Positions 28,862-58,191 of a DNA stretch of 64,000 nt are shown here, piece by piece (the stretch's first letter is position 1; every line of letters starts with the position of its first letter). The position numbers and the translations under genes are program-made. Under the pieces are notes generated by a model. That model did no database searches. It was given only the letters and a program-made list of their open reading frames with translations, and was not told where the DNA came from. The stretch is from Alphaproteobacteria bacterium (GTDB taxonomy: Bacteria > Pseudomonadota > Alphaproteobacteria > JAJFFI01), in NCBI GenBank assembly GCA_030066595.1, contig JASJBI010000057.1, positions 40,021 through 104,020 of the forward strand. Reading direction: 5' to 3'.

Positions 28862-28875
28862 TTGAGCAGGCTCAA
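28862..28875. promoter_or_regulatory. FixK/FNR-type box TTGAGCAGGCTCAA (TTGA-N6-TCAA)
   Basis: Perfect palindromic half-sites, intergenic. It lies about 190 nt upstream of the usp-crp operon (minus strand) and about 130 nt upstream of the histidine phosphatase gene (plus strand). Confidence 0.55.
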
Positions 28876-29002
28876 TTGTTTCCAGGATATTGCGGTGCAA
28901 TATGGATCCGCCCGGCAAATCGCCGGGACGGACGGTTGCGAGTGTTCGCGTTGCGACCCTTGGCAGCCGCTGAGGGGTATTGAGCAGGCGCTGGGTTTCA
29001 TG

Positions 29003-29554
29003 TCAGTTAGGTTCGAGTTCGGGGCGGCGACCTTCTATTTCCTGCGTCATGGGGAGACCGACGCCAATAAGAACGGGATCGTTCAGGGGCAGCAGGACAC
29101 GCCGCTGAACGCCCGCGGCCGACGCAGTGCCGAAGAGGCCGGCCTGCGGCTGATGCCGGTAGGGCTCGGATCGATCTATGCAAGTCCCCTGAAACGCGCC
29201 TGGCAGACCGCCACGATCGTCTCGCGCTTGACCGGCGCCCCGGTCCATCCGCTGCCGGGCCTGAAGGAACGCCATTGGGGCATATATGAGGGCCGCCGTA
29301 AGAGCATGCGTCCGCGCGAGCCCGATCCCCCGAGCGTCGAACGGATGGCCGCCTTCAAGTCCCGGGTGCTCGGCGCCCTGCGGACCATCGTCGGACCGCC
29401 GCCGGTGCTTGTGGTGGCACATTCAGGTGTGTTTCGGGTGCTTTGTGCCGAGATCGGCCTCGAGATCACGACGCCCTACTCGGTCGCCAGCACGCAGTTG
29501 CTGCGTTTAGAGCCCCCGGGGACCGATCACCGCTGGCATATTACCGAGGTCTAG
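29003..29554 (+). CDS. Histidine phosphatase family protein (phosphoglycerate mutase-like)
   Basis: FYFLRHGETDAN...DTPLNARGRRSAEEAG is the RHG catalytic motif. Paralog of the gene at 49177-49734. Confidence 0.8.
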   Translation, partial: SVRFEFGAATFYFLRHGETDANKNGIVQGQQDTPLNARGRRSAEEAGLRLMPVGLGSIYASPLKRAWQTATIVSRLTGAPVHPLPGLKERHWGIYEGRRKSMRPREPDPPSVERMAAFKSRVLGALRTIVGPPPVLVVAHSGVFRVLCAEIGLEITTPYSVASTQLLRLEPPGTDHRWHITEV

Positions 29555-29638
29555 AGAAGGAGCCGGTGCAGACAGCTCAAGCCTGTGCGGTCTTGGCACG
29601 GCAGAACGCCCGCGCGCAACCTCGCAGACACCAGCGGC

Positions 29639-30826
29639 TCACGCGAACACTTCCTCCGGCCGTTTGGCGAAATCGGCGGACAGGGCGTCGACGACGATGC
29701 GCAGGATCTCGTTGATGACCTGATCCTTGTAGTCGTTGACGACGATGCGGATGCCCCACCGATCCGCCTCGGACAAGAGGAACGACTGCAACTGCCAGAT
29801 GCCATCGAAGTGCTCGAGATATCTCTCGGCGCGTCGCTGGTCGGCGTGCTTGCCGCGCCCCCGGATCCCCGCCTTGAGCCGCTCGGGATTAAGGACGGCC
29901 AGCATGATCGGGACGACGATGGCGCCGGACTCCACCGGAATCCGGTCGAGCAAAGTGTGCTGTACGTGAACCCCCTCCAGGAGCAGTGAGACCTGCTCCC
30001 TGAGGGCGCGTTTGATGACCGCTTCACAGGGGACGGAGAGCAGCTCCGCCTGGGCTCGGTATCCATCGAGGACCGTGGCATCCGTATCGTTGGCGCGCTC
30101 GCCGCGGCCGGGCAGGGCACGCCAAGCGTCGAAGGAGGAGGTGTGCAGCACCGGTGAAAGGCGCTGCGGAATCATCATGCGCATGACTTCGCGAAGGAGA
30201 TCTGTCGACTGCGTGCGCACGATCCCGAGCCGATGCGCCACTTCGGTGGCCACGACGCTCTTGCCGCTGCCAGGGGCCCCACCGATCAGCACCAGCAAGG
30301 GTCGACCCCCGTGGAAGTAGTCCGCCAGAACCAGATAGCGGCGGGCGGCGCCGGCGCCCAGGGCGCGACGGACATAGCGAAACGTCAGAACCCCGAGATG
30401 GCGGGCCGTAATCTCCGCAACCGCCTTCTTCATCAGATGGTCGAAAATCGCGGTGGTGACCGCCGTGGATCGCTCGTAGGACAGTCCGCTGGACTCGAGA
30501 AGACGGCGATGCTGTTCCCGCGAGAACGGTGTGGTTCGCCCCGCGATGTCACGCACCAGGACCGTGTGGGGCGTGGCGCCCAGCGCCTCGTACCGCTGCA
30601 CGACCGCGGTGCCATACTCTGCCGACAGATGGCGTACGACCGCCTCGTGCAAGTCCGGCGTGGTGATCTCCGGCGTCTCTGCCAACTCCTCGCGCAAGGT
30701 TGAGGCGAGGGCATAGGCCTCATCGAAAGACAGGCCGGCATCCTGCAAAGATCGGGTCAAGATTCCGCGCAGAAACGGAATCTTGGTGTGGTCCTCGCCA
30801 GGCTCAATGACCAGCGTTTTCGCCAA
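29639..30826 (-). CDS. 2-phosphoglycerate kinase-like P-loop kinase with an N-terminal ATP-cone-like domain
   Basis: N-terminus IPFLRGILTRSLQDAGLSFDEAYALASTLREEL resembles the ATP-cone region of archaeal-type 2-phosphoglycerate kinases. P-loop LIGGAPGSGKSVVATEVAHRLGI. Family assignment from memory. Confidence 0.6.
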   Translation of the reverse strand: MAKTLVIEPGEDHTKIPFLRGILTRSLQDAGLSFDEAYALASTLREELAETPEITTPDLHEAVVRHLSAEYGTAVVQRYEALGATPHTVLVRDIAGRTTPFSREQHRRLLESSGLSYERSTAVTTAIFDHLMKKAVAEITARHLGVLTFRYVRRALGAGAARRYLVLADYFHGGRPLLVLIGGAPGSGKSVVATEVAHRLGIVRTQSTDLLREVMRMMIPQRLSPVLHTSSFDAWRALPGRGERANDTDATVLDGYRAQAELLSVPCEAVIKRALREQVSLLLEGVHVQHTLLDRIPVESGAIVVPIMLAVLNPERLKAGIRGRGKHADQRRAERYLEHFDGIWQLQSFLLSEADRWGIRIVVNDYKDQVINEILRIVVDALSADFAKRPEEVFA

Positions 30827-31019
30827 GGGCGCGCTCCGTTCGCTGCAAACTTGAGGATTTGTCCGACGGCTTCATTCGATGCGGTCGAACCGTCACATAC
30901 TCTTGATTTTTGTCAAGATCATACAGCAACGGAGCGGCCCGGAACAGCCGATCCGTCGTTCCAGGCAGACCCCACTTCGCGAATGAAATTTCGGGCCGGG
31001 AGCCTAGGTCAAGCGCTCC

Positions 31020-31475
31020 TCAGTCCTCGTCGGTCGCCCAGGCGGCGGACTTGGCGACCTGATCCTCCAGCGCACCGCGGATCCAGGTCAGCTCGGAAAG
31101 GACATTTTTGACCACGTCATTGATGCTGACGAGGCCCACCAATGCTCCGTCCTCCAGCACCGGCAGATGCCGCAGGTGACCACTTAACATCTGGTTCATC
31201 AGCTCTTCCGTGTCGGTCTCTGGCGTACAGGTCACGACCGACCGGGTCATCAGATCCGCGACGGATAGATCGAGCGTCTGCGCGCCGCGATCCGCGATGC
31301 TGCGCACGATATCGCGCTCGGAGATGATGCCGGCGATGGCCCCCTCATCCGTATTGACCAAGACGGCGCCAATCTGCTCGTCCCGCAGGATCTCGGCGAC
31401 CTCGGTCACAGCGGTGGCCTCGCGCGTTGTGACGACCCGTTCGCCCTTCTCCTTCAGAATGTCCGCAACCTGCAT
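31020..31475 (-). CDS. CBS-pair domain protein
   Basis: Two CBS motifs (VADILKEKGERVVT...IGAVLV...GIISERDIV; ADLMTRSVVTC...HLPVLEDGALVGLVSINDVV). Confidence 0.8.
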   Translation of the reverse strand: MQVADILKEKGERVVTTREATAVTEVAEILRDEQIGAVLVNTDEGAIAGIISERDIVRSIADRGAQTLDLSVADLMTRSVVTCTPETDTEELMNQMLSGHLRHLPVLEDGALVGLVSINDVVKNVLSELTWIRGALEDQVAKSAAWATDED

Positions 31476-31631
31476 TTTATGTTTCTCCTTGCTGCGACCC
31501 GACCTGGACTCCCATTCCCTCAAGCTTAGCCTGCGCCAGGCATGTTAAGGAAGGCCGGCGCCCGGCCCACCAGGCTTCGCTGACCAGGCCACGTCAGACA
31601 GGCGACGGAGGCTGCGCGTGTGGCGGCAACG

Positions 31632-32141
31632 TCAACTCGTCATGACGCCTACACCGATGAGCACCGCAAACCCCGCGACCAGAGCGATCAAGGCCTTGTT
31701 CTTGGTGGCGAACGACTTGACGTCTCGATTGAGCCCTTCGATCTCCTGCTCCTGCTCGCGGACGACCCAGCTCGTCAGGTCGCCGCTGGAGATCATCGCA
31801 AGCAGTTTGTCACCGTCCATGATCGGCAGATGCCGCACGCGACGCTCGGAGACCTGACGCATCGCCTCTTCGACGGTCATCGACGGTGGGACGCTGTACG
31901 GGTTCTCGGTCATGACCTGCGCGACCTGTGTCGTCTGAGGATCCAACGAGTCGTTCACCACACGGAACAATACGTCGCGCTCCGTGAAGATCCCGGCCAC
32001 CTTGTCGTCGGCGCGCACCAAGAGCGCACCCACCTTTTGGTCGTGCATTTTCTGGACGGCCTCGGCGACGGACGCATCCGGTGCGATCGCATGCACCTCT
32101 GAACCCTTCGATTTTGCGATCTCACTCAGCTGACTTTGCAT
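31632..32141 (-). CDS. CBS-pair domain protein with a C-terminal transmembrane anchor
   Basis: Two CBS motifs and a terminal hydrophobic helix (ALIALVAGFAVLIGVGVM). Confidence 0.8.
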   Translation of the reverse strand: MQSQLSEIAKSKGSEVHAIAPDASVAEAVQKMHDQKVGALLVRADDKVAGIFTERDVLFRVVNDSLDPQTTQVAQVMTENPYSVPPSMTVEEAMRQVSERRVRHLPIMDGDKLLAMISSGDLTSWVVREQEQEIEGLNRDVKSFATKNKALIALVAGFAVLIGVGVMTS

Positions 32142-32221
32142 GGCTGGATCTCCCCCTCGCGCTCAGTGCAACTCGGCTTTCCCGAAAGGCCGCAGTATTC
32201 TGCGCGGTTTCGGATCCCGCA

Positions 32222-32235
32222 TTGAGATATCTCAA
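32222..32235. promoter_or_regulatory. FixK/FNR-type box TTGAGATATCTCAA
   Basis: Perfect TTGA-N6-TCAA palindrome, about 80 nt upstream of the CBS-TM gene start at 32141. Confidence 0.55.
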
Positions 32236-32308
32236 TATTTTCCCTTCGATGATCGGAGCGCCGGCGGAGCGTCGTCGGCAGGCCATCGCAATCGCTCGAT
32301 AGACCGGG

Positions 32309-34629: not shown

Positions 34630-34746
34630 GCGGCGCGCCGCCCGCGGACGCCAATCGCGTGCCCGCGCGGACCTCCGTTGCAAGCAGGGATGGCTGATCG
34701 GCTCTCTTGCTCTCAGGGCGGAATCGGGTCATGGCGATCGGCCCAC

Positions 34747-35480: not shown

Positions 35481-36002
35481 TCAGTGGCGGCGCGGCAGAT
35501 CGCCTGCAGCCGACTCGCGGCGACCGAGCCAGAGCGGCTCGGTGCCTTCGGGCAGGGTCTTGCAGAACATGAAATGGTCCATGCGGTGTCCGCGACTGGT
35601 TAGGCTGTCGCGCAGCGCGCGATTGCCCCTTTGCGGCAGGTCGAGCAGCAAGCTGGTATGGATCGCCCTGCAGTCGCATTCTGCCGCCACCTGCTCGACG
35701 CCCTCGATCAAGAGGGCGAAGGCGGCTTCGGTCGATTGACGGACGGGCGCCAGGACCAAAGCGTCCTTGGCCAGCAAGGTTCGACCGTGCTTGAGATCGG
35801 TGTAGATCGTGTAGAAGATCAGGCCGAGGATGTAGCCCTGTTCCGTTTCGACGGTCAGGATGCCATGGTCGGCGCTCGCTGCTGGCCTCAGATGTTCCGT
35901 CGCGAGTGCGCACCAGCCCTCCAAGGAGAGATCAGGACGCATCGCCTGGATCAGTGGATAGGCTTGAGCGACCTTGGTGCGGCAAAGTGGCGCGAGTCTC
36001 AT
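35481..36002 (-). CDS. Hypothetical protein, possibly GNAT-like fold
   Basis: 174-aa ORF starting MRLAPL. The track's 36218 start is an upstream extension. Divergent from fnrL. Confidence 0.4.
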   Translation of the reverse strand: MRLAPLCRTKVAQAYPLIQAMRPDLSLEGWCALATEHLRPAASADHGILTVETEQGYILGLIFYTIYTDLKHGRTLLAKDALVLAPVRQSTEAAFALLIEGVEQVAAECDCRAIHTSLLLDLPQRGNRALRDSLTSRGHRMDHFMFCKTLPEGTEPLWLGRRESAAGDLPRRH

Positions 36003-36275
36003 CTGCGGTCCGACCGTAATCCCGCATTTGCCCAGGGATCCTGACCGAACAGCGACACGACGTCGTTGAGCTATGTCAAAACTGAGCGTTGCGTCGTCTA
36101 TGGGGTTGTTTGCTCCAAGGCCGCCGCCTGCGGTCCGGCATGATGCGGCGTGCTTGCAGCGCATGTTAACCCTAACTCCCCCGTCAAAACCGATACACCT
36201 CCACAGTTTCGAGCGCATTGCTTGCCTGCCAACGGCTTATCAGGCATGTTTGAAACCGGGGAGGACAGCACGAAT

Positions 36276-37061
36276 ATGGCCAAGGCTGCCAAGCCTTTGA
36301 CCGAGCTGGAGGGCACCACTGCGCTGCCGCGTGCGGTACCGCGCGGGGGGCCGGGTGTGGCGCCGTGCGGCGCCTGCGCGGTGCGGCCCTTGGCCATCTG
36401 CGCGGCTATGCCGCTCGAGCATCTCGCTCAGCTTGCGGCGATCGTCACAAGCGTCAGCCTCACCGCAGGCCAGCCGCTGTTCCTCGAAGGCGAGCCGGCG
36501 CGGCATCACTTCATCGTCACAGGAGGCGCCCTCAAGATCTATAAGCTGCTGTCCGACGGCCGGCGGCAGGTGACCGGCTTCGTGTTTCCCTCGGATTTCC
36601 TCGGCCTCGCCAACAAGGAGACCTATGCCTACAGCGCCGAGGCCATGACCCGGACCGAGCTGTGCCGCTTCCGCCGGGAAAAGCTCGAGGCGATGCTGGA
36701 TCGCTTCCCACAGCTTGAGAGACGCCTGCTGGCGGTGGCCAATGACGAGCTTGCAGCCGCCCAGGAGCGGATGCTGTTGTTGGGCCGCAAGACGGCCAAG
36801 GAGCGCATTGCCTCGTTCCTGACGACCCTGGGCAGGACCACGTCCCGTCGGGGAGAGAGCAAGCAGGTCGTCACCCTCCCCATGAGCCGGACGGACATCG
36901 GCGACTACCTGGGCCTCAGCACAGAGACCGTGAGCCGCACGTTCACCGAGCTAAAGCTGGCGGGCATCGTGCGGCTCGAGCCCAAGAGCCGCGTGCGTAT
37001 TCTGGATGACCGCAAGATCAACCTGCTGGCGGAATGCGAAGACGCGACACTGGGGCTTTGA
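36276..37061 (+). CDS. fnrL: FNR/FnrL-type oxygen-sensing transcriptional regulator (Crp/Fnr family with 4-Cys cluster)
   Basis: N-terminal CGACAVRPLAIC plus a central Cys (TELCRF) in the canonical FNR [4Fe-4S] ligand spacing. HTH DIGDYLGLSTETVSRTFTELK carries the E--SR recognition motif for TTGAT half-sites. Confidence 0.85.
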   Translation: MAKAAKPLTELEGTTALPRAVPRGGPGVAPCGACAVRPLAICAAMPLEHLAQLAAIVTSVSLTAGQPLFLEGEPARHHFIVTGGALKIYKLLSDGRRQVTGFVFPSDFLGLANKETYAYSAEAMTRTELCRFRREKLEAMLDRFPQLERRLLAVANDELAAAQERMLLLGRKTAKERIASFLTTLGRTTSRRGESKQVVTLPMSRTDIGDYLGLSTETVSRTFTELKLAGIVRLEPKSRVRILDDRKINLLAECEDATLGL

Positions 37062-37144
37062 GGGGGCCGGCGCGCAACGCCGGCCCCTGTCGACAGTCCG
37101 GCTGACCTACTCCGAGCCTTGAGTCGGGCGGCGCGCCGCTCCGT

Positions 37145-39460
<2,316 letters not shown>

Positions 39461-39601: not shown

Positions 39602-39615
39602 TTGAGCCAGCTCAA
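39602..39615. promoter_or_regulatory. FixK/FNR-type box TTGAGCCAGCTCAA
   Basis: Perfect TTGA-N6-TCAA palindrome, about 140 nt upstream of the ppk1 start at 39460. Confidence 0.55.
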
Positions 39616-39702: not shown

Positions 39703-41511
39703 TCATTCCGCCGCCTCCGGCACGCCGGCGGAGGGCGTCACCGGCCACTGGGTCTTGGCGATCTTGCGGCAGAGCCGGTAGATGCGGCTCAGATTCTCGA
39801 TCATCTCCATTTCCCGCGTGAAGGTGCGCAGCCGGTTCGGTTCCTGGGCCACCAGGCGGCTGACCTCGTGGCGAGCCGTTTCTTGGGCCAGCTCGGCCAT
39901 GTCCTTCTTCATGCCTTTGACCCGCAAGGCGGCCGCCGGATCCTCCTCTCGAACCGCCTGAACGGACGTGTGAAAGGCTTCCGTGACCTGGTCGTGATAG
40001 CGCTGGATCACGGCCCGCGTCTCGTCGCTCACGGCCACGTCCTCCTCGATTCGCCGGCGCCCGATGGTGACCAGGTTGGTCTCCATGATATCGCCGATCT
40101 GCTCGAGGTTGTTGGCCACCAGCAAGAGATCCATGATCTCCGCAGTTTCCTCCGGCGAGAGCTCCTCGCGGCTCACCTGACCGAGATAACGGACGATGTG
40201 CCCATGCAGGACGTCGATATCCGCGTCCATTGCGGCAAGCCTCTCCAGGTCCTCCTCGGAGCCCGATACCACGGCCGGCAAGCTGGCCTGCAGCATCTCC
40301 TCGGTCAGATCGCCCAGGCGCCCGATCTCGCGCCGGGCCCGGTCGAGCGCCAGCGCCGGCGTCGACAGCAGCTCCTTGTCGAGATAGCGGGCCTGGATGA
40401 CCGCCGGCTCGACCATCGGCCGGTCGGGCACGAGCCACTCGGCGAAACGCGCGACCAGGCCGGCAGCCGGCAGGAACGCGAGGGCGAAGAAAACGTTGAA
40501 GGTGGTGTGGGCGTTGGCGATCTGGCGCGGCGTTTCGGCGGCCAGCTTGTCCATGCCGGTGACGCCTTGCGCGACCGGTGAGATCGAGCGCACGAATTCG
40601 GCGAGCATGGGAATGAACCACACGGCGATCGCGACGCCCGCGACGTTGAAGGTGACGTGCGCCACCGACACGCGAACGGCCTCCCGGGGCTTGCCGATGG
40701 CGGCGAGCCCCGCCGTGACGCAGGTTCCGATGTTGGCCCCCATGATCAGGGCGATGCCGCCTTCGAGGCTGATCAGACCCTGGGACGCCATCGCAATGAC
40801 AACACCCGTGGTCGCCGAGGACGACTGGATCAGGCCGGTGAAGGCCGCGGAGATCAGAATTCCCACGGCCGGAGTCGACACCTCGCGCATCAGCTCGATG
40901 AAGGGCTCGTAGGTGCGCAGCGGCTTCATGCCCGAGCTCATGATCCCCATGCCGAAGAAGATCAGCCCCAGCCCCATGACCAGCGCGCCATATTGCTTTA
41001 TCCGCTCGGACTTGCCGGTGAAGATCAGGACGAAGCCGACGGCCACCAGAAGAAGCGCGTAATGGGTGACCTTGAAGGCGACGATCTGGGCGGTAATCGT
41101 CGTGCCGATATTGGCGCCGAAGATGACGCCGACGGCCTGCGACAAGGACATCAGCCCGGCGGTCACGAATCCCACCAACATCACGGTGGTCACCGAGGAG
41201 GACTGAATGACCGCGGTGACGAAGGTCCCCGTGAGTGCGCCCATGAACCGATTTGTCGTGAGCTTGCCCAAAATGGTCTTCATCCGGTTCCCGGCGACCT
41301 TCTTGAGGGCCTCGGCCATCTGCTCCATGCCGAACAGGAACACGGCAAGCCCGCCGAAGAGCTGCATGCCCATCGTTCCCCACGCGATCGGCTTGCCTTC
41401 CGCCGCGGCGAGAGCGGGCGTGGACGCGATCCAGGCCGCCGCCGCCAAAATGAGAAAGATCCCGGTGTACAGGATCCGGTTCTTGGCGCTGGCGTGATGA
41501 ATGCTTCCCAT
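39703..41511 (-). CDS. Na/Pi cotransporter family protein (NptA-like) with C-terminal PhoU-like domain
   Basis: Duplicated Na/Pi cotransporter repeats (GANIGTTITAQIVAF...; GANIGTCVTAGLAAI) followed by a helical PhoU-like tail. ATG at 41511 with SD GGGGG upstream. Confidence 0.8.
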   Translation of the reverse strand: MGSIHHASAKNRILYTGIFLILAAAAWIASTPALAAAEGKPIAWGTMGMQLFGGLAVFLFGMEQMAEALKKVAGNRMKTILGKLTTNRFMGALTGTFVTAVIQSSSVTTVMLVGFVTAGLMSLSQAVGVIFGANIGTTITAQIVAFKVTHYALLLVAVGFVLIFTGKSERIKQYGALVMGLGLIFFGMGIMSSGMKPLRTYEPFIELMREVSTPAVGILISAAFTGLIQSSSATTGVVIAMASQGLISLEGGIALIMGANIGTCVTAGLAAIGKPREAVRVSVAHVTFNVAGVAIAVWFIPMLAEFVRSISPVAQGVTGMDKLAAETPRQIANAHTTFNVFFALAFLPAAGLVARFAEWLVPDRPMVEPAVIQARYLDKELLSTPALALDRARREIGRLGDLTEEMLQASLPAVVSGSEEDLERLAAMDADIDVLHGHIVRYLGQVSREELSPEETAEIMDLLLVANNLEQIGDIMETNLVTIGRRRIEEDVAVSDETRAVIQRYHDQVTEAFHTSVQAVREEDPAAALRVKGMKKDMAELAQETARHEVSRLVAQEPNRLRTFTREMEMIENLSRIYRLCRKIAKTQWPVTPSAGVPEAAE

Positions 41512-41606
41512 TGCGTTACCCCCTGCGGTTCTCTTATCGGCAGCCGGTTTTGTGCCCAGCAGGCAAAGCCCCATCCGACAGCCCCGCCCCATATTTCTGC
41601 TGTCTG

Positions 41607-42111
41607 TCAACGATCATTTCTCGGCGCCTTGACGATTGTGACCGGGATCGGCGAGAGCTGGACCACCCGCTCGGCCTTGGAGCCCAACAGCAGATGCGGC
41701 AGGCCGGTGCGCCCACGGCTTCCCATCACGATCATGCGGGCGCCGGTGTTGGTGGCCGCTTCCAGAATGCGCGTATCCGGAATGCCCTTGACCAGGGTCG
41801 TCTCGGCGGTTGCCAGCGCCTCGAGCTGCGGATGTTCCTCCCGCGCCGTGGCGACGAACTCGTCCATCATTTCCCGGGCGACGTCTTCCATGGGCTGCAA
41901 GTGATCTTTCTGGTTCTTGCGATAGGAGCCCGGCGCCTCGGCCGGATCGTGCACCACATGCAGAATGCGAACCGGTGCACCGACAGTGGCTGCATACTCG
42001 CAGGCCCATCGCAAGGCCGCCTCGGAATCGGCCGTGAAGTCGACGGCCACCAGGATCGGGCCGTCGTCGCTCGGATGCTCGGTGGATTTGGCCGTCTGGG
42101 TTTCGCTCACC
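41607..42111 (-). CDS. Universal stress protein (UspA family)
   Basis: ILVAVDFTADSEAALRWACEYAATVGAPVRILHVVHDP...VMGSRGRTGLPHLLLGSKAERVVQLSPIPVTIVK. GTG start at 42111 after SD GGGGGGAGAG. The track merges it with a long antisense ORF (41607-43760). Confidence 0.8.
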
Positions 42112-42194: not shown

Positions 42195-42208
42195 TTGAGG
42201 TGGATCAA
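42195..42208. promoter_or_regulatory. FixK/FNR-type box TTGAGGTGGATCAA
   Basis: Perfect TTGA-N6-TCAA palindrome, about 85 nt upstream of the usp start at 42111 (minus strand). Confidence 0.55.
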
Positions 42209-42234: not shown

Positions 42235-42248
42235 TTGAGCCACATCAA
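42235..42248. promoter_or_regulatory. FixK/FNR-type box TTGAGCCACATCAA
   Basis: Second perfect box in the same divergent intergenic region, 40 bp from the first and about 210 nt upstream of the CNNM gene start at 42456. Confidence 0.5.
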
Positions 42249-44135: not shown

Positions 44136-44138
44136 CCG

Positions 44139-45434
44139 ATGATTACCGAAATGCTCCTGGCGATCCTGGCCATGCTGCTGTTCTTGGCGCTCAAGGGCTT
44201 CTTCTCGGGCTCGGAAATCGCTCTGGTCAACGCCGACAAGATCAAGCTCCGCCACCGGGCCAAACAGGGTCACCGCGGCGCCGAGTTGTCGCTGAAGCTC
44301 TTGCAGGCGCCGGACGTGCTGCTGAGTACGACCCTGGTGGGCACCAATATCTGCACGGTGGTGCTCACGACCATCGGCGCCTTGCTGATGATCCGGCTGT
44401 TCGGCGAGCTTGGCGAGGTCTACGCCTTCCTGATCCTGACGCCGTTGCTGCTGGTGCTCGGCGAGATCGTGCCCAAGAGTGTCTACCAGCAGAAGTCCGA
44501 TCGGCTGACGCCGATCATCATCTATCCGCTGCGTTGGGCCTCGTATCTGTTCTATCCGGTGGTCTTCGTGTTCTCCCGCGTGGCGCGGCTCACCGCGCGG
44601 CTGGCCGGCGCCGGTAAGCGGGAGCAGCCGTTCTTCATCACGCGGGAGCAGCTCCGCATGCTGCTCGACGTGGCCGAGCACGGACCGGCGATGGACGCCT
44701 TCGGCAAGGGCCGCATCCGCCGGGTCATCCGCTTTGCCGAGACGACCGTGGCCGAGGCCATGATCCCGATCGCCGAGGCAACGGCGATCAGCCGCAGCAG
44801 CAGCACGGCGACGGCGGTCGATCTGGTCCGCAAGCACGGCTATAACCGCCTGCCGGTGTTCGAGAGCAGCACCAGCAATATCGTCGGCATCGTCACCTTG
44901 ACCACCTGGGACCTGATGGACCCGGAACTCAGGGAACGGCCGCTCGAGAGCCTGATCAAGCCCGCCCTCTACGTCTCGCCCCTGCAGACGATCGACCAGC
45001 TGTTGCCGGTCCTGCGACGGCGGCCGGACCATATGGCCATCGTCGTCGACGAATTCGGCACCGCGATCGGCATGATCACCATGGAGGACATCGTCGAAGA
45101 GGTCGTTGGCGAGATCGATGTGGGCTACGACTTCGAGGAGTACCTGCCGAAAAGGAAGCGGGTCTACGAGAAGCTTGCCGAAGAGGTCTATCTGATGGAC
45201 TCGCGGCTCTCGGTTTCGGAAGCCAACGAGGTGCTTGCCATCAACCTGCCGACCACCGAGTTCCATACCGTGGGCGGTCTGGTTCTGGCGCGGCTCCGCC
45301 ATATTCCCGAGATCGGCGAATACATCGGCGAAGAGGGCTATCGCTTTACGGTGGTCGAGGCCAGCGACCGGGCGATCCTGAGGCTGCGGGTCGAACCCGA
45401 ACACCTTGTCGGCCAGGCCGACGAGCCGGTCTAG
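44139..45434 (+). CDS. CNNM/CorC-family Mg2+/Co2+ transporter (DUF21-CBS-CorC_HlyC)
   Basis: FFSGSEIALVNADKIKL..., CBS pair, and a C-terminal transporter-associated domain. Confidence 0.85.
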   Translation: MITEMLLAILAMLLFLALKGFFSGSEIALVNADKIKLRHRAKQGHRGAELSLKLLQAPDVLLSTTLVGTNICTVVLTTIGALLMIRLFGELGEVYAFLILTPLLLVLGEIVPKSVYQQKSDRLTPIIIYPLRWASYLFYPVVFVFSRVARLTARLAGAGKREQPFFITREQLRMLLDVAEHGPAMDAFGKGRIRRVIRFAETTVAEAMIPIAEATAISRSSSTATAVDLVRKHGYNRLPVFESSTSNIVGIVTLTTWDLMDPELRERPLESLIKPALYVSPLQTIDQLLPVLRRRPDHMAIVVDEFGTAIGMITMEDIVEEVVGEIDVGYDFEEYLPKRKRVYEKLAEEVYLMDSRLSVSEANEVLAINLPTTEFHTVGGLVLARLRHIPEIGEYIGEEGYRFTVVEASDRAILRLRVEPEHLVGQADEPV

Positions 45435-46786: not shown

Positions 46787-47182
46787 GGATTCAACCGACC
46801 GCTCCCGCGATCACGGGCCGGCCGCCTGACCCGGCCCCACTTATGGTGTCAAGCGCCAGTTTAGACTCCTAGCGGCTTGGCGAAAACGTCGATCTGTCTG
46901 GAGCCCATCCGGAGCCCAGGACAGACCAACGCGGTGGTGCCGGATGGCCTCCGGCCTTTCCCTGCCGAGCGGCCGCCACCATAGCCTGGGCGGCTTTTTG
47001 ATCGGTCTCGCAAAGGCGATCCCTCCGGAGGGCTCGGTCATGCAGTTCGAGGGCATCTCGTTCACGGTCGAGGCGGCCACCGATCAGGCAGTCCAGGAGG
47101 TCCGGGTGAAGCGGTGAATCCACGGCCGTGCCGGGGGTCTATCGCTGACACGCCCATCGGGCGAGGCCAAGTCCGGGCATTC

Positions 47183-47196
47183 TTGAGCTACGTCAA
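47183..47196. promoter_or_regulatory. FixK/FNR-type box TTGAGCTACGTCAA
   Basis: Perfect TTGA-N6-TCAA palindrome inside the 790-bp intergenic region. It is about 385 nt upstream of the ppk2 start (47579) and about 400 nt upstream of the CNNM gene start (46786, minus strand). Confidence 0.5.
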
Positions 47197-47578
47197 TTTC
47201 GAGATGGCATGCTATGGTTAGCCTAGTCGTGCTGAATCGGCGCGCGTCGGGACAGGATCCGGCGCTGGCTCAGACCGCGGGGTCCAAATTCACCGGCTCC
47301 CTTTTTGGTTTGCGGCCAGGACTGCCTGAGCGGCAGTGCGAAGAGACCGGTCAGCAGGGCTTCGCGCTGCTGTCGGCGGGGCAGTCGGCTCGTCAGCGGC
47401 AACGCGTAAGGGGAGATCGCTGGGAGGCGTGAAGATTCTTGTTTGCAGAAAGTTAATGCGACTCAAGGTATTGCGGTGGGGCCTGGCGGGCCATGGTTAA
47501 CCGGCCCGGGTGCCGCAACCGCATGCAAGAGCGCCTCCATCGCCGCGCCAGGCGGCCAACCAGGTGGTGGTAGAAACG

Positions 47579-49144
47579 ATGTTTGAGACCGCAGAAATCG
47601 GACGGAAGGTCGCCAAGGCGACCTACAACAAGCAAGTCCCGCTATTGCGGCTGGAGCTGCTCGAGGTTCAACAGGAACTGCGCCAGGCGGGGTTCCCCGC
47701 CATCGTGCTGTTCGGCGGCGTCGACGCGGCCGGCAAGAGCGAGACCGTCAATCTGCTCAACGAATGGATGGACCCGCGCTGGCTCACCACGTCCGCCTAC
47801 GTAGATCCCTCCGACGAGGAGAAGGAGCGGCCCGAGTTCTGGCGCTATTGGCGTGACCTGCCGCCGAAGGGACAGATCGGTCTGTTCCAGAGTGCCTGGT
47901 ATTCCAGGGCCATTCGGGCGCGGGTCTACGGGGGCCTTTCGGATGCCGGGTTCGACAAGGCGCTCGAGCGCATCGAGACCTTCGAGAAGGAGCTCGCCGA
48001 CGACGGCACACTGATCCTCAAGTTCTGGCTGCACCTCAGCCGGGAAGGCCAGAAAAAGCGCTTCAAAGCCTTGGAATCCGACCCGCTGACAAGCTGGCGG
48101 GTGGCCAAGACCGACTGGGAGAACCTCAAGCACTATGACGACTTCGTGGCCGCGTCCGAACGTGCGATCGCCCGCACCAGCACGGGCGAGGCGCCCTGGC
48201 ACATCGTCGAGGGCTACGACCTGCGCTACTGCGGTCTGAGCGTGGCAGAGACGCTCAGGGATGCGCTGCAGAAGCATTTGCGCGAAGCGGAAATCAAGCA
48301 AGAGCTCGTTGCTCAGATGCAGATCGACGAAAGCCTCGCCCAGGACGAGCCCGCAGCGGCGCCGAAGAAGGGTAACGGGGCCGATGAAGACGCGGGCGCA
48401 GGTGTCGTCCTCTCGCCGCGCGTGACCATCTTGAGCCGGCTGGACATGAACCAGACCCTGTCCAAGAGCGATTACCGCACCCAGTTGGCGAAGTATCAGG
48501 CCAAGCTGCACAAGCTGAACCGCGAGGCGATCAAGCGCAAACTTTCGTCGATTTTCGTGTTCGAGGGCTGGGACGCCGCCGGCAAGGGCGGCGCCATCCG
48601 CCGGATGACCCAGGCGCTCGATGCGCGGAGCTATCGGGTCATTCCGATCGCGGCGCCGACCGACGAAGAGAACCAGCACCACTATCTATGGCGGTTCTGG
48701 CGCCATATTTCGCGCGCCGGCCGGGTCACCATGTTCGACCGCAGCTGGTATGGCCGTGTGCTCGTGGAACGGGTCGAGGGCTTTGCCAGCGAGGCCGAAT
48801 GGCGGCGCGCCTACGGCGAGATCAACGATTTCGAGGAACAGCTGGTCAATCACGGCATCCTCCTGCTCAAGTTCTGGGTGCACGTCACACCGGAGGAGCA
48901 GTTGGTCCGGTTCAAGTCCCGTGAGGAGGTGCCGTACAAGCGCTGGAAGCTCACCGATGAGGACTGGCGCAACCGCGAGAAATGGGGCGACTACGAGGAG
49001 GCGGTCAACGACATGATCGAGCGGACCAGCACCGCCTCGGCGCCCTGGACCCTGGTTGAGGGCAACGACAAGCGGTTCTCCCGCGTGAAGGTGATCCAGA
49101 CCGTCTGTGACAGTTTGGAGGAGCGGCTCAAGGCTGAGGCCTAG
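47579..49144 (+). CDS. ppk2: Two-domain polyphosphate kinase 2 (PPK2 tandem domains; polyphosphate:AMP phosphotransferase type)
   Basis: Two PPK2 P-loop domains (FGGVDAAGKSET...; FEGWDAAGKGGAI...) each followed by conserved W/R lid regions. Confidence 0.85.
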   Translation: MFETAEIGRKVAKATYNKQVPLLRLELLEVQQELRQAGFPAIVLFGGVDAAGKSETVNLLNEWMDPRWLTTSAYVDPSDEEKERPEFWRYWRDLPPKGQIGLFQSAWYSRAIRARVYGGLSDAGFDKALERIETFEKELADDGTLILKFWLHLSREGQKKRFKALESDPLTSWRVAKTDWENLKHYDDFVAASERAIARTSTGEAPWHIVEGYDLRYCGLSVAETLRDALQKHLREAEIKQELVAQMQIDESLAQDEPAAAPKKGNGADEDAGAGVVLSPRVTILSRLDMNQTLSKSDYRTQLAKYQAKLHKLNREAIKRKLSSIFVFEGWDAAGKGGAIRRMTQALDARSYRVIPIAAPTDEENQHHYLWRFWRHISRAGRVTMFDRSWYGRVLVERVEGFASEAEWRRAYGEINDFEEQLVNHGILLLKFWVHVTPEEQLVRFKSREEVPYKRWKLTDEDWRNREKWGDYEEAVNDMIERTSTASAPWTLVEGNDKRFSRVKVIQTVCDSLEERLKAEA

Positions 49145-49734: not shown

Positions 49735-50225
49735 GCTCGGCCCCGGACGTAGACAATCGCGGGCTGGTTCCGGTGAAGATCCGCAGGAGGACTCGGTTGG
49801 GCCCAGCCGCTTTTGCAACTTTCCAGGGCTTGGCTAAATATTTCGTTAACTTTTGAGGGAAATTTGTCCCAGCCCAGCGGGGCAGGGGGCCGCTCATTCG
49901 ACGGACCCCGGCAGAGGCGCGCTGGCGCGCCGGGCCGAGATCGGCGGAATCGGTTTATTGCGCTGTATCAATTTACTAAGCTTGCCGTCTGGTTATGTTC
50001 GGACACGTGTCCTGAAATCCGTGGCCGGCGGGCCGGCTGAATGGCGCTTGCGGGTTTTCTTGGGTTCGGGGCCGAGCGACGAGTGTCGGCGCGATGTGGA
50101 GAGGGGACGTGATTGCAAGTGGCAAGATGGTGGTCCGGGACAGAGCCCGTGTGCTCAACGGGAGCCCGCGTAGTGCGGGTCCGGCCTGCCGGCGACGCTG
50201 TCCGGCTCCGACGGTGAGGTGAACC

Positions 50226-52258: not shown

Positions 52259-52345
52259 ATCCGCCCTTTCCGCCACGTCATTGCAGAAGTCTCAAGTGGC
52301 GATGACAAAACCATAACAATACGACGCCAAACTCCTCTTCAGGAA

Positions 52346-52359
52346 TTGAGCAAGATCAG
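52346..52359. promoter_or_regulatory. Near-FixK box TTGAGCAAGATCAG (one mismatch), about 55 nt upstream of the pstS start
   Basis: Seven of the eight defining positions match. Weak evidence on its own. Confidence 0.25.
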
Positions 52360-52412
52360 TTTTGTGCCCGGCCCCTGCCGGGCGCGTGCGGACTGTTTGA
52401 AGGGGAGATGTC

Positions 52413-53297: not shown

Positions 53298-53302
53298 GCC
53301 GC

Positions 53303-53340
53303 CCGGCCCGGGTCGACCTCCGTGGTCGACCCGGGGCCGG
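53303..53340 (+). terminator. GC-rich hairpin just after the pstS stop (CCGGCCCGGGTCGACC-tccgt-GGTCGACCCGGGGCCGG)
   Basis: Inverted repeat read directly from the sequence. There is no U-tract, as is common in high-GC genomes. It may act as an attenuator between pstS and the downstream genes. Confidence 0.35.
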
Positions 53341-53464
53341 CTCCGGCATAGATGCCGCGGGGGCGGACCGTACGACGGACGCTCTCGCGAGAGAGAGCCT
53401 GCGGATCGATCAGCGGGCCTGGCAGGGCCCGAGCGCGCAAGGGGCGTAGTGGAGCTAAGCTATC

Positions 53465-54550
53465 ATGACGCTTTACGAGGAAAGACTGTCGAAGGATCTG
53501 GGCCGCCTCCGCGACGAGGTCGCGACGATTGGGGCGGCGGTGCAGACGGCGCATGAGAATGCGGCCCAAGCCGCGTTAACCGGCAACCGGACGCTCGCCA
53601 ACCTCACCATCATCGGCGATCATCCCATCAATCGGCGGGTCCGCGAGATCAACCGGCTGGCGCACGCCTTCCTTGCGGTTCATCAACCCAGCGCCGGCCA
53701 CCTTCGCCTGATCTCCTCGATCCTGCGCCTGGTCAACGAGCTCGAGCGTATCGGCGATTACGCCGTGACCATCGCCCGCGAAGCGCTGCAACTGCCGCAT
53801 ACGCCCACGGGTCTGCTCAAGCAGGAGTTCGAGCAGATGGCCGATCAGGCGCAGACCTGCCTGCGCCAGTCGATGACCGCCTTCAACGAGAGGAATGCGG
53901 ACCTCGCCCGAGAGACGAAGGCGCTGGCGTCACAAGCCAAGGGCCGCGGTGACACGGTGTTCGGCGAGCTGGTTGAGGAAGCCGAAAAGGAGCAGATCCG
54001 CTACCTCTTCGACGTCCTGATCATGGTCGGACGGCTCAAGCGCGTGGCCGACCGGGCCAAGAACATCTGTGAAGAGACGCTGTTCACGGTCACCGGCGAG
54101 ACCAAGGCCCCGAAGGTCTACAAGATCTTGTTCCTCGACCAGGAGAACAACTGCCAGAGCCAGCTCGCCGAGGCGTTCGCCCGCAAGACCTTCCCGAACA
54201 GCGGGCAGTACAACAGCGCCGGCCGGGTCAACGGCGTGGACCTCGCGCCCGGGCTGTTGAGCTTCATGGAGATGCACGGGCTGGCGGTCCAGCCGATGAC
54301 GCCCAAGACCATAGAGACAGATCTCGATCGGATTGCCGCCCACGATTTGGTGATCAGCCTGGACGGGCCGATGTCCGCCTATGTCGACAAGCAGCCGTTC
54401 CGGACCGTCTATCTGGAATGGGACGTCGGGGCGCGGCCGGAAGGGGCCGACGAGGCGGAGGTCGAAACGCGGTACCGCGAGATCTATCGCGAGATCTCGG
54501 CTCAGGTCCGTGCCCTGATGGAAACGCTCAGAGGCGAGGAGGCGGACTGA
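53465..54550 (+). CDS. phoU: PhoU-domain protein fused to a catalytically degenerate low-molecular-weight phosphatase (LMWPc/ArsC-like) domain
   Basis: N-terminal 215 aa with two PhoU repeats (LVNELERIGDYAVTIA; IMVGRLKRVADRAKNICEE). C-terminal 140 aa with an LMW-PTP fold pattern, but the P-loop reads ILFLDQENNCQSQLAEAF, where the canonical sequence is V-C-X4-C-R-S. The catalytic Cys is replaced by Asp and the Arg by Gln. Confidence 0.8.
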   Translation: MTLYEERLSKDLGRLRDEVATIGAAVQTAHENAAQAALTGNRTLANLTIIGDHPINRRVREINRLAHAFLAVHQPSAGHLRLISSILRLVNELERIGDYAVTIAREALQLPHTPTGLLKQEFEQMADQAQTCLRQSMTAFNERNADLARETKALASQAKGRGDTVFGELVEEAEKEQIRYLFDVLIMVGRLKRVADRAKNICEETLFTVTGETKAPKVYKILFLDQENNCQSQLAEAFARKTFPNSGQYNSAGRVNGVDLAPGLLSFMEMHGLAVQPMTPKTIETDLDRIAAHDLVISLDGPMSAYVDKQPFRTVYLEWDVGARPEGADEAEVETRYREIYREISAQVRALMETLRGEEAD

Positions 54551-54551
54551 C

Positions 54552-55499: not shown

Positions 55500-55514
55500 G
55501 CGCCGGGGGGCCTT

Positions 55515-56384: not shown

Positions 56385-56389
56385 GGGCG

Positions 56390-57205
56390 ATGAACGACCA
56401 GGGGGTTGCCACGATTCTCGAGACGTCCCAGCCCGCGACCGCGGCGAAGGGACCGGTGAAGCTTGCCGTCCACAACCTGTCCATCAGCTATGGCGGCACG
56501 CCGGCGCTGGTCGGCGTCGACCTGGAGATCCACGAGAACGAGATCTTCGGCATCATCGGTCCCGCCAACAGCGGCAAGACGTCGTTCCTCAAGGCGCTGA
56601 ACCGGATGGACATGTTCAACCCGGCCATGCAGGTCGCGGGCGACATCCTGTTCAACGGCACCAACATCCGCCAGTGGCGCAATGTCTACGCACTGCGTCG
56701 GCGCATCGGCGTGGTCTTCCCCCTGCCGGTGGGCCTGCCGATGACCGTCTACGACAACGTCGCCCTGGCGCCACGGCTTTCGGGCGTCAACAGGAAGGCG
56801 GACTTGGACGATATCGTGGAGCGCTGTCTCCGGCGCGCGGCGCTGTGGGACGAGGTCAAGGACCGCCTCGACTCGCTGGGCAGCCTGCTCTCCGGCGGCC
56901 AGCAGCAGCGCCTGACCATCGCCCGGGCGCTCTCGCAAGACCCGGAGCTCTTGATGCTGGACGAGTTCTCCATCGCCGTGGACCCGGTGACCACGATGCG
57001 CATCGAGGACGTGCTCAAGGAGCTGCGGACGGAAATGACCATCATCCTCGTCACCAACCTGACCCAGCAGGCACGCCGCCTGGCCGATCGCACGGCCTTC
57101 TTCCTGACCGGAAGCTGCGTCGAGATCGGCGACACCGAGGCCTTGTTCACCGGCAACGTCCAGGACACGCGCACCGCGGACTACATCGCCGGCCGGTTCG
57201 GATAG
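56390..57205 (+). CDS. pstB: Phosphate ABC transporter ATP-binding protein, degenerate paralog (PstB1)
   Basis: PstB-like throughout, but the Q-loop is VVFPLP (Q replaced by P), the D-loop region is LMLDEFSIAVDP and the H-loop is ILVTNLTQQARR (His replaced by Asn). The ABC signature LSGGQQQRL is intact. ATG at 56390; the track's 55844 start is an extension. Confidence 0.8.
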   Translation: MNDQGVATILETSQPATAAKGPVKLAVHNLSISYGGTPALVGVDLEIHENEIFGIIGPANSGKTSFLKALNRMDMFNPAMQVAGDILFNGTNIRQWRNVYALRRRIGVVFPLPVGLPMTVYDNVALAPRLSGVNRKADLDDIVERCLRRAALWDEVKDRLDSLGSLLSGGQQQRLTIARALSQDPELLMLDEFSIAVDPVTTMRIEDVLKELRTEMTIILVTNLTQQARRLADRTAFFLTGSCVEIGDTEALFTGNVQDTRTADYIAGRFG

Positions 57206-57226
57206 GCGACGGGGGAGGGAAGCCGG

Positions 57227-58042
57227 ATGCATGAGCCGATCATGAACGAGACCCGTGCGGCCAATGGCGGCAATGGACACGACGCCATCTTCACCCGAGA
57301 CCTCAATCTCTGGTACGGCGACTTCCAGGCGCTGTTCGACGTGAACCTGGCCATCAAGGACGGCATGATCACCTCGCTGATCGGGCCGTCCGGCTGCGGC
57401 AAGACCACCTTCCTGCGCAGCATCAACCGCATCAACGAGCGGCTGGGCTACGTCCGTACCGAGGGCTCGATCCTGGTGTTCGACACGGACATCTACGGCG
57501 GCGAGGTGGAGCTCGCCCAGGTGCGCAAGCAGATCGGGATGGTGTTCCAACGACCGAACCCGCTGCCGATCTCGATCAGCGATAATGTGCTGTTCGGCTT
57601 CCAGCTCCATGGCGAAGGGCGCACGCGCATGCACAAGAGCGAGAAGGAAGAGATCGTCGAAGCGGCGCTCAAGCAGGTCCTGCTCTGGGATACGGTCAAG
57701 GACCGGCTGGACAGCAAGGCGACCGAGCTGTCGCTGGAGGAACAGCAGAAGCTCTGCATCGCGCGCCTCCTGCCGGTGAAGCCCACCATCCTCTTGATGG
57801 ACGAGCCCTGTTCCGCGCTCGACCCCAAGGGCACGGAGGCGGTCGAGGAGCTCATCTGGGAGCTGCGCGGCGACTACACCATCGTCATCGTCACGCACAA
57901 CATGGCGCAGGCGCGGCGCGCCAGCGAGGAATGCATCTTCATGCTGATGGGCAAGGTGGTGGAGCACACGGCGACCGAGGACATGTTCGTCACGCCGGCC
58001 AAGAAGGAAACCGCTGACTACATCGAAGGCCGCTACGGCTGA
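57227..58042 (+). CDS. pstB: Phosphate ABC transporter ATP-binding protein (PstB2) with canonical catalytic motifs but a degenerate signature
   Basis: Walker A GPSGCGKTT, Q-loop VFQRP, Walker B LLMDEPCSALDP and H-loop VTHNMAQARR are canonical. The signature reads LSLEEQQKL in place of LSGGQQQRL. Confidence 0.85.
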   Translation: MHEPIMNETRAANGGNGHDAIFTRDLNLWYGDFQALFDVNLAIKDGMITSLIGPSGCGKTTFLRSINRINERLGYVRTEGSILVFDTDIYGGEVELAQVRKQIGMVFQRPNPLPISISDNVLFGFQLHGEGRTRMHKSEKEEIVEAALKQVLLWDTVKDRLDSKATELSLEEQQKLCIARLLPVKPTILLMDEPCSALDPKGTEAVEELIWELRGDYTIVIVTHNMAQARRASEECIFMLMGKVVEHTATEDMFVTPAKKETADYIEGRYG

Positions 58043-58177
58043 CCGTCGGCGCGGGCCGCAGACGCCCGCATTGTTGCGCAATCCCCGAACCTGAAGAGCG
58101 ACCACCGACCGTTCCCGACGGCCAGCGCTGTGCGTTCTCCGCGGCCGTGGAAATTTCTCGCCGTTCATTGCGCCTTA

Positions 58178-58191
58178 TTGAGCTATCTCAA
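58178..58191. promoter_or_regulatory. FixK/FNR-type box TTGAGCTATCTCAA
   Basis: Perfect TTGA-N6-TCAA palindrome, about 205 nt upstream of the DUF47-pit operon start at 58396. Confidence 0.55.

Follow-up and report, generated by a model that had tools for sequence, protein, structure and literature searches.

Nine perfect copies of the palindrome TTGA-N6-TCAA lie among genes for polyphosphate, phosphate and divalent-cation metabolism on a 64-kb stretch of the alphaproteobacterial contig JASJBI010000057.1 (contig positions 40,021 to 104,020; this stretch is called the window here, and its coordinates count from its first nucleotide). These boxes, found with the search pattern TTGANNNNNNTCAA, are probably operators for a Crp-family activator of the FNR/FixK type, uniting an island of 30 kb as one regulon, and the genes of the island are probably switched on at low oxygen. 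A first-pass annotation of the same DNA had proposed an FNR/FixK-type regulon, and sequence analysis supports the proposal: it agrees with the class II geometry of the promoters, the conservation of the boxes together with their target genes, the recognition helices and cysteines of two regulators, and the activation of ppk2 and usp by FnrL in Rhodobacter. The number of boxes had been put at seven; all seven 14-mers are where they were placed, and two others, at 30903 (TTGATTTTTGTCAA) and at 36066 (TTGAGCTATGTCAA, just 5' of fnrL), bring the total to nine.

Chance had been estimated to yield well under one such box in the window, and dinucleotide-preserving shuffles (n=100) bear this out: they average 0.30 boxes, never contain more than 3, and in no case reach nine. 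On a gene map built from codon usage and Pfam/NCBIfam matches and verified by comparison with the genes called on an identical metagenome scaffold, all nine boxes fall outside called genes, as annotated earlier for seven of them (P~1e-8 for random placement, with intergenic DNA making up 12.9% of the window); three of them overlap maximal extensions of open reading frames (ORFs) only, and homology-supported starts leave them intergenic. All nine are confined to 28.8-58.3 kb, at a density of 3.05 per 10 kb. The specificity of the motif was gauged against two controls: the remaining 34.5 kb of the window, which hold no perfect box, and 1.3 Mb from 76 unrelated ppk1 loci, which hold 0.29 boxes per 10 kb, one tenth of the density in the island. 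The flanks of the nine sites are unrelated (mean identity 31%, maximum 42%); the boxes are thus not copies of a repeat element, and an origin from a repeat or mobile element is ruled out. Sites with one mismatch number 20 in the window, 6 of them intergenic (P=0.036); the two that had been singled out before, at 52346 and 62890, are both present.

In class II FNR and CRP promoters the box is centred at -41.5, so that the -10 hexamer starts 22 nucleotides (nt) past the end of the box. Profiling of -10 hexamers at every offset between 5 and 44 to either side of each of the nine boxes (18 combinations of site and direction) finds nAnnnT at offset 22 in 7 of the 18, against a background of 3.4% in the intergenic DNA of the window (binomial P=1.3e-6), and no other offset in this range is enriched; three of the seven hexamers have the stricter form TAnnnT, which occurs at 0.5% of intergenic positions. 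As a -10-like hexamer exactly 22 nt past a box marks the class II activator position, class II FNR activator geometry is predicted for most boxes. The best examples are 42195 toward usp2 (TAGGTT), 47183 toward ppk2 (TAGCCT) and 58178 toward the DUF47-pit operon (TAATGT).

Along the island, the first box, TTGAGCAGGCTCAA (28862-28875), lies between the divergent usp1-crp2 operon (minus strand) and a histidine phosphatase gene (plus strand), with CAATAT at +22 toward the latter. Box 30903 (30903-30916), 77 nt 5' of a gene of the ATP-cone/2-phosphoglycerate-kinase-like type, is the weakest of the nine, without a good -10 at +22. Box TTGAGATATCTCAA (32222-32235) stands 5' of two CBS-pair genes (31632-32141 and 31020-31523, minus strand), with AATACT at offset 22 in their direction. 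Box 36066 (36066-36079) separates a hypothetical gene (35481-36002, minus strand) from fnrL (plus strand); it is a candidate autoregulatory site, with CAGGAT at offset 22 toward the hypothetical gene. Box TTGAGCCAGCTCAA (39602-39615) is located 5' of ppk1, encoding polyphosphate kinase 1 (37145-39460, minus strand). Two boxes 40 bp apart serve divergent units: TTGAGGTGGATCAA (42195-42208) the operon of usp2 and a gene fusing a Na/Pi cotransporter to PhoU (39703-42110, minus strand), and TTGAGCCACATCAA (42235-42248) the CNNM1-CNNM2 genes for CorC/CNNM-type divalent cation transporters (42456-45434, plus strand), with TATATC/TATCTT at offsets 23-25 toward CNNM1. Box TTGAGCTACGTCAA (47183-47196) precedes the gene for a two-domain PPK2 (47510-49144, plus strand), a polyphosphate:AMP phosphotransferase that scores 701.6 bits against TIGR03708, above the equivalog cutoff of 547.65; box TTGAGCTATCTCAA (58178-58191) precedes the operon of DUF47 (PhoU_div) and pit (PHO4 family; 58348-60378, plus strand).

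The same promoters carry boxes in related bacteria. A retrieval probed with ppk1 gave 80 loci from reference genomes, among them four alphaproteobacterial ones that share island genes: L002, L003 (a Paracoccaceae metagenome-assembled genome, MAG), L020 (Kiloniellaceae) and L024. Further loci, L082 to L087, were retrieved via homologs of the Cys-less regulator described below; L082 and L002 belong to the same chromosome, OZ272519.1. In the four alphaproteobacterial loci the order of the island genes is rearranged and the boxes stand at the same promoters. L002 has a box with at most one mismatch, followed exactly 22 nt downstream in the direction of the gene by TAnnnT, at 5 of 5 promoters (DUF47-pit TAGGGT, ppk2 TAAGCT, CNNM1 TACGGT, usp2-Na/Pi TAGAGT, ppk1 TACCTT). 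Counted by the same rule, L002 and L082 together give 5/5, L085 4/4, L087 2/2 and L083 one promoter. L085 has the identical 14-mer TTGAGGTGGATCAA for usp2 (TAGGGT), paired at a distance of 39 bp with a box for CNNM1 (TAAGGT), and further boxes for ppk2 (TAGTGT) and ppk1 (TATTGT); L087 and L082 have boxes at ppk2 and DUF47-pit, L083 at DUF47-pit, and L003, L020 and L024 5' of ppk1, DUF47-pit, CNNM, ppk2 and the NUDIX-SixA gene.

Viewed promoter by promoter, perfect or one-mismatch boxes precede ppk1 in L002, L085, L003, L020 and L024; the paired usp2/CNNM1 boxes are kept, 39-42 bp apart, in L002, L085 and L003; the ppk2 box keeps its form and orientation in L082, L085 and L087, each with TAnnnT at +22; and DUF47-pit has boxes in L002/L082, L083, L087, L020, L003 and L024, most of which are followed at +22 by TAGGGT or TAGCGT. 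Each promoter also retains its own asymmetry, read in the orientation of the gene: TTGAG-N4-GTCAA for ppk2, TTGAG-N4-ATCAA for CNNM1 and TTGAT-N4-CTCAA for usp2. The orthologous proteins encoded behind these boxes share ~60-75% identity. Since TAnnnT occupies 0.5% of background positions, its repeated coincidence with +22 is not due to chance, and the conserved boxes constitute, as far as comparison of genomes can tell, a phylogenetic footprint of functional activator sites. The one-mismatch sites add three candidates. TTGCGCTGTATCAA (49958-49971), 5' of phoB, has TATGTT at +22, and L083 and L084 have TTGATCCAnATCAG 5' of phoB; TTAATCTAGATCAA (62890-62903) lies 5' of the NUDIX-SixA gene, and L020 has a perfect box between its histidine phosphatase and NUDIX-SixA genes; TTGAGCAAGATCAG (52346-52359), ~60 nt before the ATG of pstS and without a -10 at +22, is a weak candidate. 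As a separate observation, the best relative of ppk1 in GTDB genomes is 73% identical and comes from an alphaproteobacterial MAG, and its other closest relatives, from Competibacteraceae, Binatia and Geobacter-type genomes (64-69% identity), are about as close as those from other Alphaproteobacteria, a hint that ppk1 or the island may have been transferred horizontally.

Both regulators of the island carry an E--(S/C)R recognition helix, and only one of them has the 4-Cys cluster. This is FnrL (36246-37061, plus strand; NCBI start 36276), annotated from the outset as an FnrL-type regulator with such a cluster. It consists of a cyclic-nucleotide-binding-like sensor and a C-terminal Crp-type helix-turn-helix domain (PF00027, PF13545, PF00325, all above cutoff), with cysteines at 73, 76, 84 and 172 of a 303-residue ORF, that is a C-x2-C-x7-C motif and a fourth cysteine, C172, aligned with C122 of FNR; its recognition helix is ETVSR. 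Among its best 120 homologs, the named ones of which are mostly from Kiloniellales, all 120 contain C-x2-C-x7-C and 118 contain ETVSR. Its best structural matches are to FixK2 and FNR. The second regulator, Crp2 (crp2, 27364-28155, minus strand), is a FixK/CrpK-like protein with a Crp/Fnr Pfam architecture; the earlier description of it as Cys-less is correct in that it lacks the cluster and any CxxC, its cysteines being at 30, 112, 168, 178 and 202 only. Its helix reads ESVCR, with Cys in place of the Ser of FNR and FixK, and Glu and Arg kept. It is closest to FixK2 and FNR, and FixK2 (4i2o) is the best PDB match of both regulators. The Crp2 clade is narrow (~72 sequence clusters share >=51% identity, and beyond them identity falls to 44%), and the Cys cluster is found in 0 of its 72 members. 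A redox-active Cys in the helix was considered as a feature of this clade and rejected, as Cys occurs there in 7 of ~62 members and most have ES(V/I)SR.

The co-transcription of crp2 with a boxed usp gene, likewise claimed before, is supported by a crp2 start within a few nt of the stop codon of usp1 (28152-28679, minus strand), the first gene of the operon, and by a box found 5' of this operon in the window, L082 and L087. In 6 of 6 contigs read, crp2 overlaps or nearly abuts a 5' usp gene, and in 5 of 6 genomes the clade lies beside polyphosphate or phosphate island genes. The exception, L086 (9441-10756; a genome of 6.04 Mb with 58% guanine plus cytosine, GC), has a usp-crp2 operon with no polyphosphate island or boxes within 10 kb; the linkage of crp2 to the island is thus not universal. 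Judged by gene neighbourhood, the Cys-less regulator is a conserved component of the island.

The promoter of usp1-crp2 has a distinct architecture. Its box and the start codon are ~175-190 nt apart in the window, L082 (box at 9291) and L087 (box at 9271), and an element, TGTCACAAAAGCTTCA (28822-28837, minus strand), is followed 10 nt later by TACGTT; it is kept in L082 (~9326-9345), L083 and L084. In these four sequences its consensus is (A/C)TGTCAC-AAAA-GCTTCA, located 21-24 nt past the box and followed after 10 nt by TAnnnT. The element resembles a Pho box in its CTGTCAT-like repeats, its 11-bp period and its position 10 bp 5' of the -10. The FNR-type box would then be found near -70 of the predicted start, a class I-like position, and by this spacing usp1-crp2 is not a simple class II promoter. 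If PhoB binds the element, the regulator operon would join phosphate and oxygen signals. The pstS promoters of the window (52302-52319), L083 and L084 have in common ATGACAAAACCATAACAA, the opposite strand of which is the Pho-box-like TTGTTAT-GGTT-TTGTCAT; ~26 nt past it, in all three, lies the weak FNR-like site ~60 nt before the ATG. A scan with the Escherichia coli Pho-box consensus finds one decent intergenic site, that of pstS, and none at the ppk1, ppk2, CNNM and pit promoters, which rules out Pho boxes as the main explanation.

These features suggest the following mechanism. At low oxygen, the 4-Cys FnrL would assemble a [4Fe-4S] cluster, dimerise and bind the boxes, which are mostly at the class II position, ~41.5 bp 5' of the start, where they would replace the -35 element; at most promoters it would contact RNA polymerase from -41.5 and activate transcription. 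It would also drive or reinforce usp1-crp2, possibly only with PhoB active. Crp2, which would need no cluster and has nearly the same helix, would bind the same boxes and amplify, widen or prolong the response, as a feed-forward or relay arrangement. The outcome would be a programme for low oxygen and energy starvation in which polyphosphate serves as a phosphagen and phosphate and Mg2+ are moved across the membrane: ppk1 would make polyphosphate; the AMP phosphotransferase would spend it, with ADP regenerated from AMP; Pit and the Na/Pi transporter would move phosphate; the CNNM proteins would move Mg2+ as its counter-ion; and the universal stress proteins (USPs) and CBS proteins would contribute adenylate-binding functions. 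The role proposed for the USPs is consistent with their known part in anaerobic energy starvation (PMC2908626).

A number of points weigh against an FNR/FixK-type activator regulon. The sites, their geometry and conservation, the features of the regulators and the island linkage seen for the Cys-less clade are direct observations; from these we infer the binding protein, activation as opposed to repression, and oxygen as the signal. The specificity of the motif was judged from 64 kb of this genome, and classical FNR targets (cco, hemN), which could serve for comparison, are absent from the window. The -10 hexamers at +22 are poor for 30903, 39602 and the fnrL side of 36066; boxes 30903 and 32222 are not conserved among the relatives examined, and no counterpart of 30903 in particular turned up at the orthologous genes of L002 and L020. 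FnrL scores 183.6 bits against the model for the Rhodobacter FnrL equivalog (NF045989), below the cutoff of 300, and is by this measure a family member, not a proven equivalog; the best NCBIfam score of Crp2, 102.3 bits against FixK (NF050806), also falls below a cutoff of 300. Half-sites of the form TTGAG are rare among characterised FnrL sites, and the boxes may be tuned to another regulator. FNR, FixK and DNR have almost identical motifs according to the literature, and their sites are not reliably separable by sequence, so that the binder cannot be assigned from the boxes; the attribution of the boxes to one regulator was rejected for this reason, which leaves the correlation with TTGAG as the indication on offer.

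This correlation underlies the strongest alternative, less probable than the regulon described above and still to be taken seriously: that the boxes are served mainly by the island-specific, Cys-less Crp2, made together with a USP, with FnrL at most upstream. The signal could then be the energy state, phosphate status or another stress, not oxygen, and TTGAG would be a code separating Crp2 targets from general FnrL targets. TTGAG makes up 12 of the 18 half-sites of the window and, among relatives that have crp2 linked to the island, 9 of 20, compared with 0 of 12 in alphaproteobacterial islands without crp2 within 10 kb and 1 of 40 in the chromatin-immunoprecipitation (ChIP) sites of Rhodobacter sphaeroides FnrL (Fisher P=3e-9; 2e-5 without the window); the correlation is confounded with phylogeny, the numbers are small, and the other genomes are seen in part. 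The skew would fit boxes tuned to the Cys-less clade, and several other observations point the same way: the narrow clade without a Cys cluster has mostly ES(V/I)SR, as opposed to ET(V/I)SR in FnrL/FixK-like proteins; crp2 is coupled to usp in 6 of 6 genomes and adjacent to the island in 5 of 6, whereas in L002/L082 no fnrL was found up to 10 kb from the island; and the Pho-box-like element of the usp1-crp2 promoter hints at a phosphate input. Against this, the box of fnrL itself is of the TTGAG type, the difference between Thr and Ser in the helix is not at a known base-reading residue, and CrpK and FnrL of R. sphaeroides share sites (PMC4263372). Moreover, the crp2 status of L003, L020 and L024 is known for the 10 kb around the island only, the half-site comparison confounds the presence of Crp2 with the lineage of the genomes, and the usp-crp2 operon of L086 has neither island nor boxes nearby.

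An activator, be it FnrL or Crp2, is in turn much preferable to a repressor. The boxes would in that case serve repression, or some of them activation and others repression, and the island would be shut off when the regulator is active. FNR does repress some promoters, such as those of fnrL and the cox genes in R. sphaeroides (PMC2908626), the CNNM-type gene bound by FnrL is down-regulated in Rhodobacter capsulatus (PMC4634722), and the pstS site at 52346, by its distance from the ATG and the lack of a -10 at +22, could overlap the core promoter; however, a -10-like hexamer exactly at +22, the characteristic mark of class II activation, is present in the window and in at least 12 orthologous promoters, and FnrL activates ppk2 and usp in Rhodobacter (PMC4634722), so that repression appears improbable. 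Virtually nothing remains of the idea that the 14-mers are chance matches, AT-rich promoter debris or small repeat copies with no dedicated regulator: intergenic DNA is slightly AT-richer (62.7% vs 65% GC) and raises the chance rate a little, but the shuffles, the unrelated flanks and the conservation at orthologous promoters, with fixed asymmetry and -10 spacing, effectively refute it.

The predicted FNR/FixK-type regulon has counterparts in known systems. FixK2 of Bradyrhizobium diazoefficiens, without a Cys cluster and with an E--SR helix, recognises TTGA-N6-TCAA boxes and is second in an oxygen-sensing cascade. Crp2 resembles FixK2 and the rhizobial FixK cascades in being Cys-less and in the type of box predicted for it, as well as in having FixK2 for its best PDB match. 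According to the literature, fixK is normally driven by FixLJ or FxkR and not by an FNR box; the crp2 promoter, unlike classical fixK, combines an FNR-type box with the Pho-box-like element, and there is no fixLJ in the window.

The FnrL regulons of Rhodobacter are closest in their regulator and in single targets. FnrL of R. capsulatus binds and activates ppk2 (TTGATGCGTGTCAA, +2.25-fold) and uspA (+5.2-fold), and binds the K03699 gene for a CNNM-type 'putative hemolysin' (PMC4634722). In R. sphaeroides, ChIP followed by sequencing places polyphosphate-dependent phosphorylation among the new targets of FnrL (PMC4263372), and autoregulation of fnrL is known (PMC2908626). The core FNR regulon of Alphaproteobacteria includes uspA, and CBS-domain proteins are among the members predicted for the FixK regulon (PMC2908626). 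The 4-Cys FnrL, the TTGA-N6-TCAA box, the activation of ppk2 and uspA, the binding of a CNNM-type gene and the autoregulation of fnrL are points of likeness to the regulon predicted here (PMC4634722, PMC2908626, PMC4263372). In Rhodobacter, however, the polyphosphate gene is one scattered target among genes for respiration, haem and photosynthesis, with sites of the form TTGAT/C, whereas in the window nearly every unit of a contiguous polyphosphate/phosphate/Mg island is boxed, including ppk1, pit and Na/Pi, mostly with TTGAG. The pairing of regulators is also paralleled: R. sphaeroides has, beside the oxygen-sensing 4-Cys FnrL, the Cys-less paralog CrpK, with similar DNA determinants, overlapping sites and an overlapping regulon, which can replace FnrL and has a strongly bound site next to crpK (PMC4263372). 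CrpK controls photosynthesis and iron genes, unlike Crp2, the clade of which is coupled to usp and embedded in a polyphosphate island; the likeness of Crp2 to CrpK is one of features.

As to architecture, the lxa locus of Burkholderia cenocepacia is a low-oxygen-induced island of ~50 genes, in which an Fnr/Anr-like inverted repeat, TGA-N6-TCA, recurs at 17 intergenic positions; it has several USPs, genes for storage polymers and regulators of its own, and is needed for anoxic persistence (PMC3721108). A similar architecture is found here: nine perfect boxes and three candidates occupy ~34 kb, and there are two usp genes and two Crp/Fnr genes. The lxa locus differs in being betaproteobacterial and in its cargo, which by comparison of annotations comprises polyhydroxyalkanoate synthesis, fermentation and ribonucleotide reductase; its description mentions neither polyphosphate nor pit nor CNNM genes (PMC3721108). 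In Microlunatus phosphovorus, where polyphosphate is made aerobically and degraded anaerobically, the PolS-PolR factor binds promoters of phosphate transport and polyphosphate genes directly (PMC6754071); this regulator, a two-component system of an actinobacterium, is unrelated in type to the Crp/Fnr proteins and lacks an FNR-type box. The FNR regulon predicted for Accumulibacter covers respiration, usp, pta and phaC, with no mention of ppk or pit in the available part of that source (PMC6446978).

Motif, regulator types, the design with paired paralogs and the boxed low-oxygen island are therefore already known. What we did not find described is the polyphosphate/phosphate/Mg2+ cargo, its conservation in several lineages, the usp-coupled Cys-less clade resident in the island and the TTGAG skew. 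Bacteria that accumulate polyphosphate drive biological phosphorus removal, building it with oxygen and spending it without oxygen; the transcriptional switch behind this aerobic/anaerobic use is poorly defined. In Rhodobacter, ppk2 is one line in tables of FnrL targets only (PMC4634722, PMC4263372). In the window and at least four related genomes, a toolkit for making polyphosphate and for its AMP-dependent use, for moving phosphate out and in and for transport of the Mg2+ counter-ion, together with stress proteins and adenylate sensors, stands behind predicted FNR-type class II promoters, with a dedicated regulator gene embedded in the island. A bolder proposal, which we put forward tentatively and regard as rather doubtful, is that the Cys-less clade, undescribed so far and always co-translated with a USP, reads a TTGAG-skewed box and acts as master switch dedicated to a portable 'polyphosphate battery' island, joining the inputs of oxygen, through FnrL, and phosphate, through the PhoB-type element of its own promoter. 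The island would consist of ppk1, the polyphosphate:AMP phosphotransferase, Pit, Na/Pi, the Mg2+ transporters of the CNNM type and the adenylate-binding CBS and USP proteins. Were this proposal true, it would provide the long-sought transcriptional basis of aerobic/anaerobic polyphosphate cycling, of the kind seen in polyphosphate-accumulating organisms, in these bacteria. The model is concrete and cheap to test, involving two proteins, one 14-bp box and about ten promoters. The usp-crp2 operon together with boxed ppk, pit and CNNM genes offers a genomic marker for candidate polyphosphate cyclers among uncultured Alphaproteobacteria, and if the TTGAG bias marks sites of the Cys-less paralog, it would help to separate the targets of co-resident FNR, FixK and CrpK paralogs.

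The genes of the region from 27.3 to 64 kb are arranged as follows: the crp2-usp1 operon, a histidine phosphatase gene, the ATP-cone/2-phosphoglycerate-kinase-like gene and two CBS-pair genes; genes for a hypothetical protein, an M20 peptidase and a flavin reductase, then a second hypothetical gene, fnrL and ppk1; the Na/Pi cotransporter-PhoU fusion, usp2, CNNM1-CNNM2, CNNM3, the two-domain PPK2 gene and a histidine phosphatase gene; phoBR, pstS, a fusion of PhoU and a low-molecular-weight phosphatase (LMWPc), and pstCAB with a second pstB; and DUF47-pit, a metallophosphoesterase gene, a hypothetical gene and the NUDIX-SixA gene. Rfam gives zero matches at the gathering threshold anywhere in the window, which rules out known RNA elements in the long leaders of ppk2 (~300 nt), CNNM1 (~200 nt) and pit (150-300 nt). 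The leader of ppk2 (47197-47510) is unusually long, ~280-330 nt as opposed to ~50-130 nt in L082, L085 and L087, and carries a second site, with one mismatch, at 47453. Just before the ppk2 box, an ORF of 57 residues (46944-47117, plus strand) matches the C-terminal part of the CorC_HlyC domain only and is probably the remnant of a fourth CNNM gene.

The PhoU-LMWPc fusion gene (53465-54550, plus strand) lies between pstS and pstC, with the two pstB paralogs after pstA, and the fusion is kept in L083 (2-1093) and L084 (4679-5770). The fusion of an ATP-cone with a P-loop kinase (29639-30826, minus strand) is nearest to 2-phosphoglycerate kinase, below the cutoff, and accompanies the island in three genomes: the window, L002 (12952-14145) and L020 (16741-17916). 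Among the USPs, usp2 and the usp1 of L082 have an intact ATP-binding motif, G-x2-G-x9-G-[ST]; it is broken in usp1 of the window, where the second Gly is Asp, and in the usp genes of L083 and L084, so that the regulator-coupled USP may be unable to bind ATP in some genomes.

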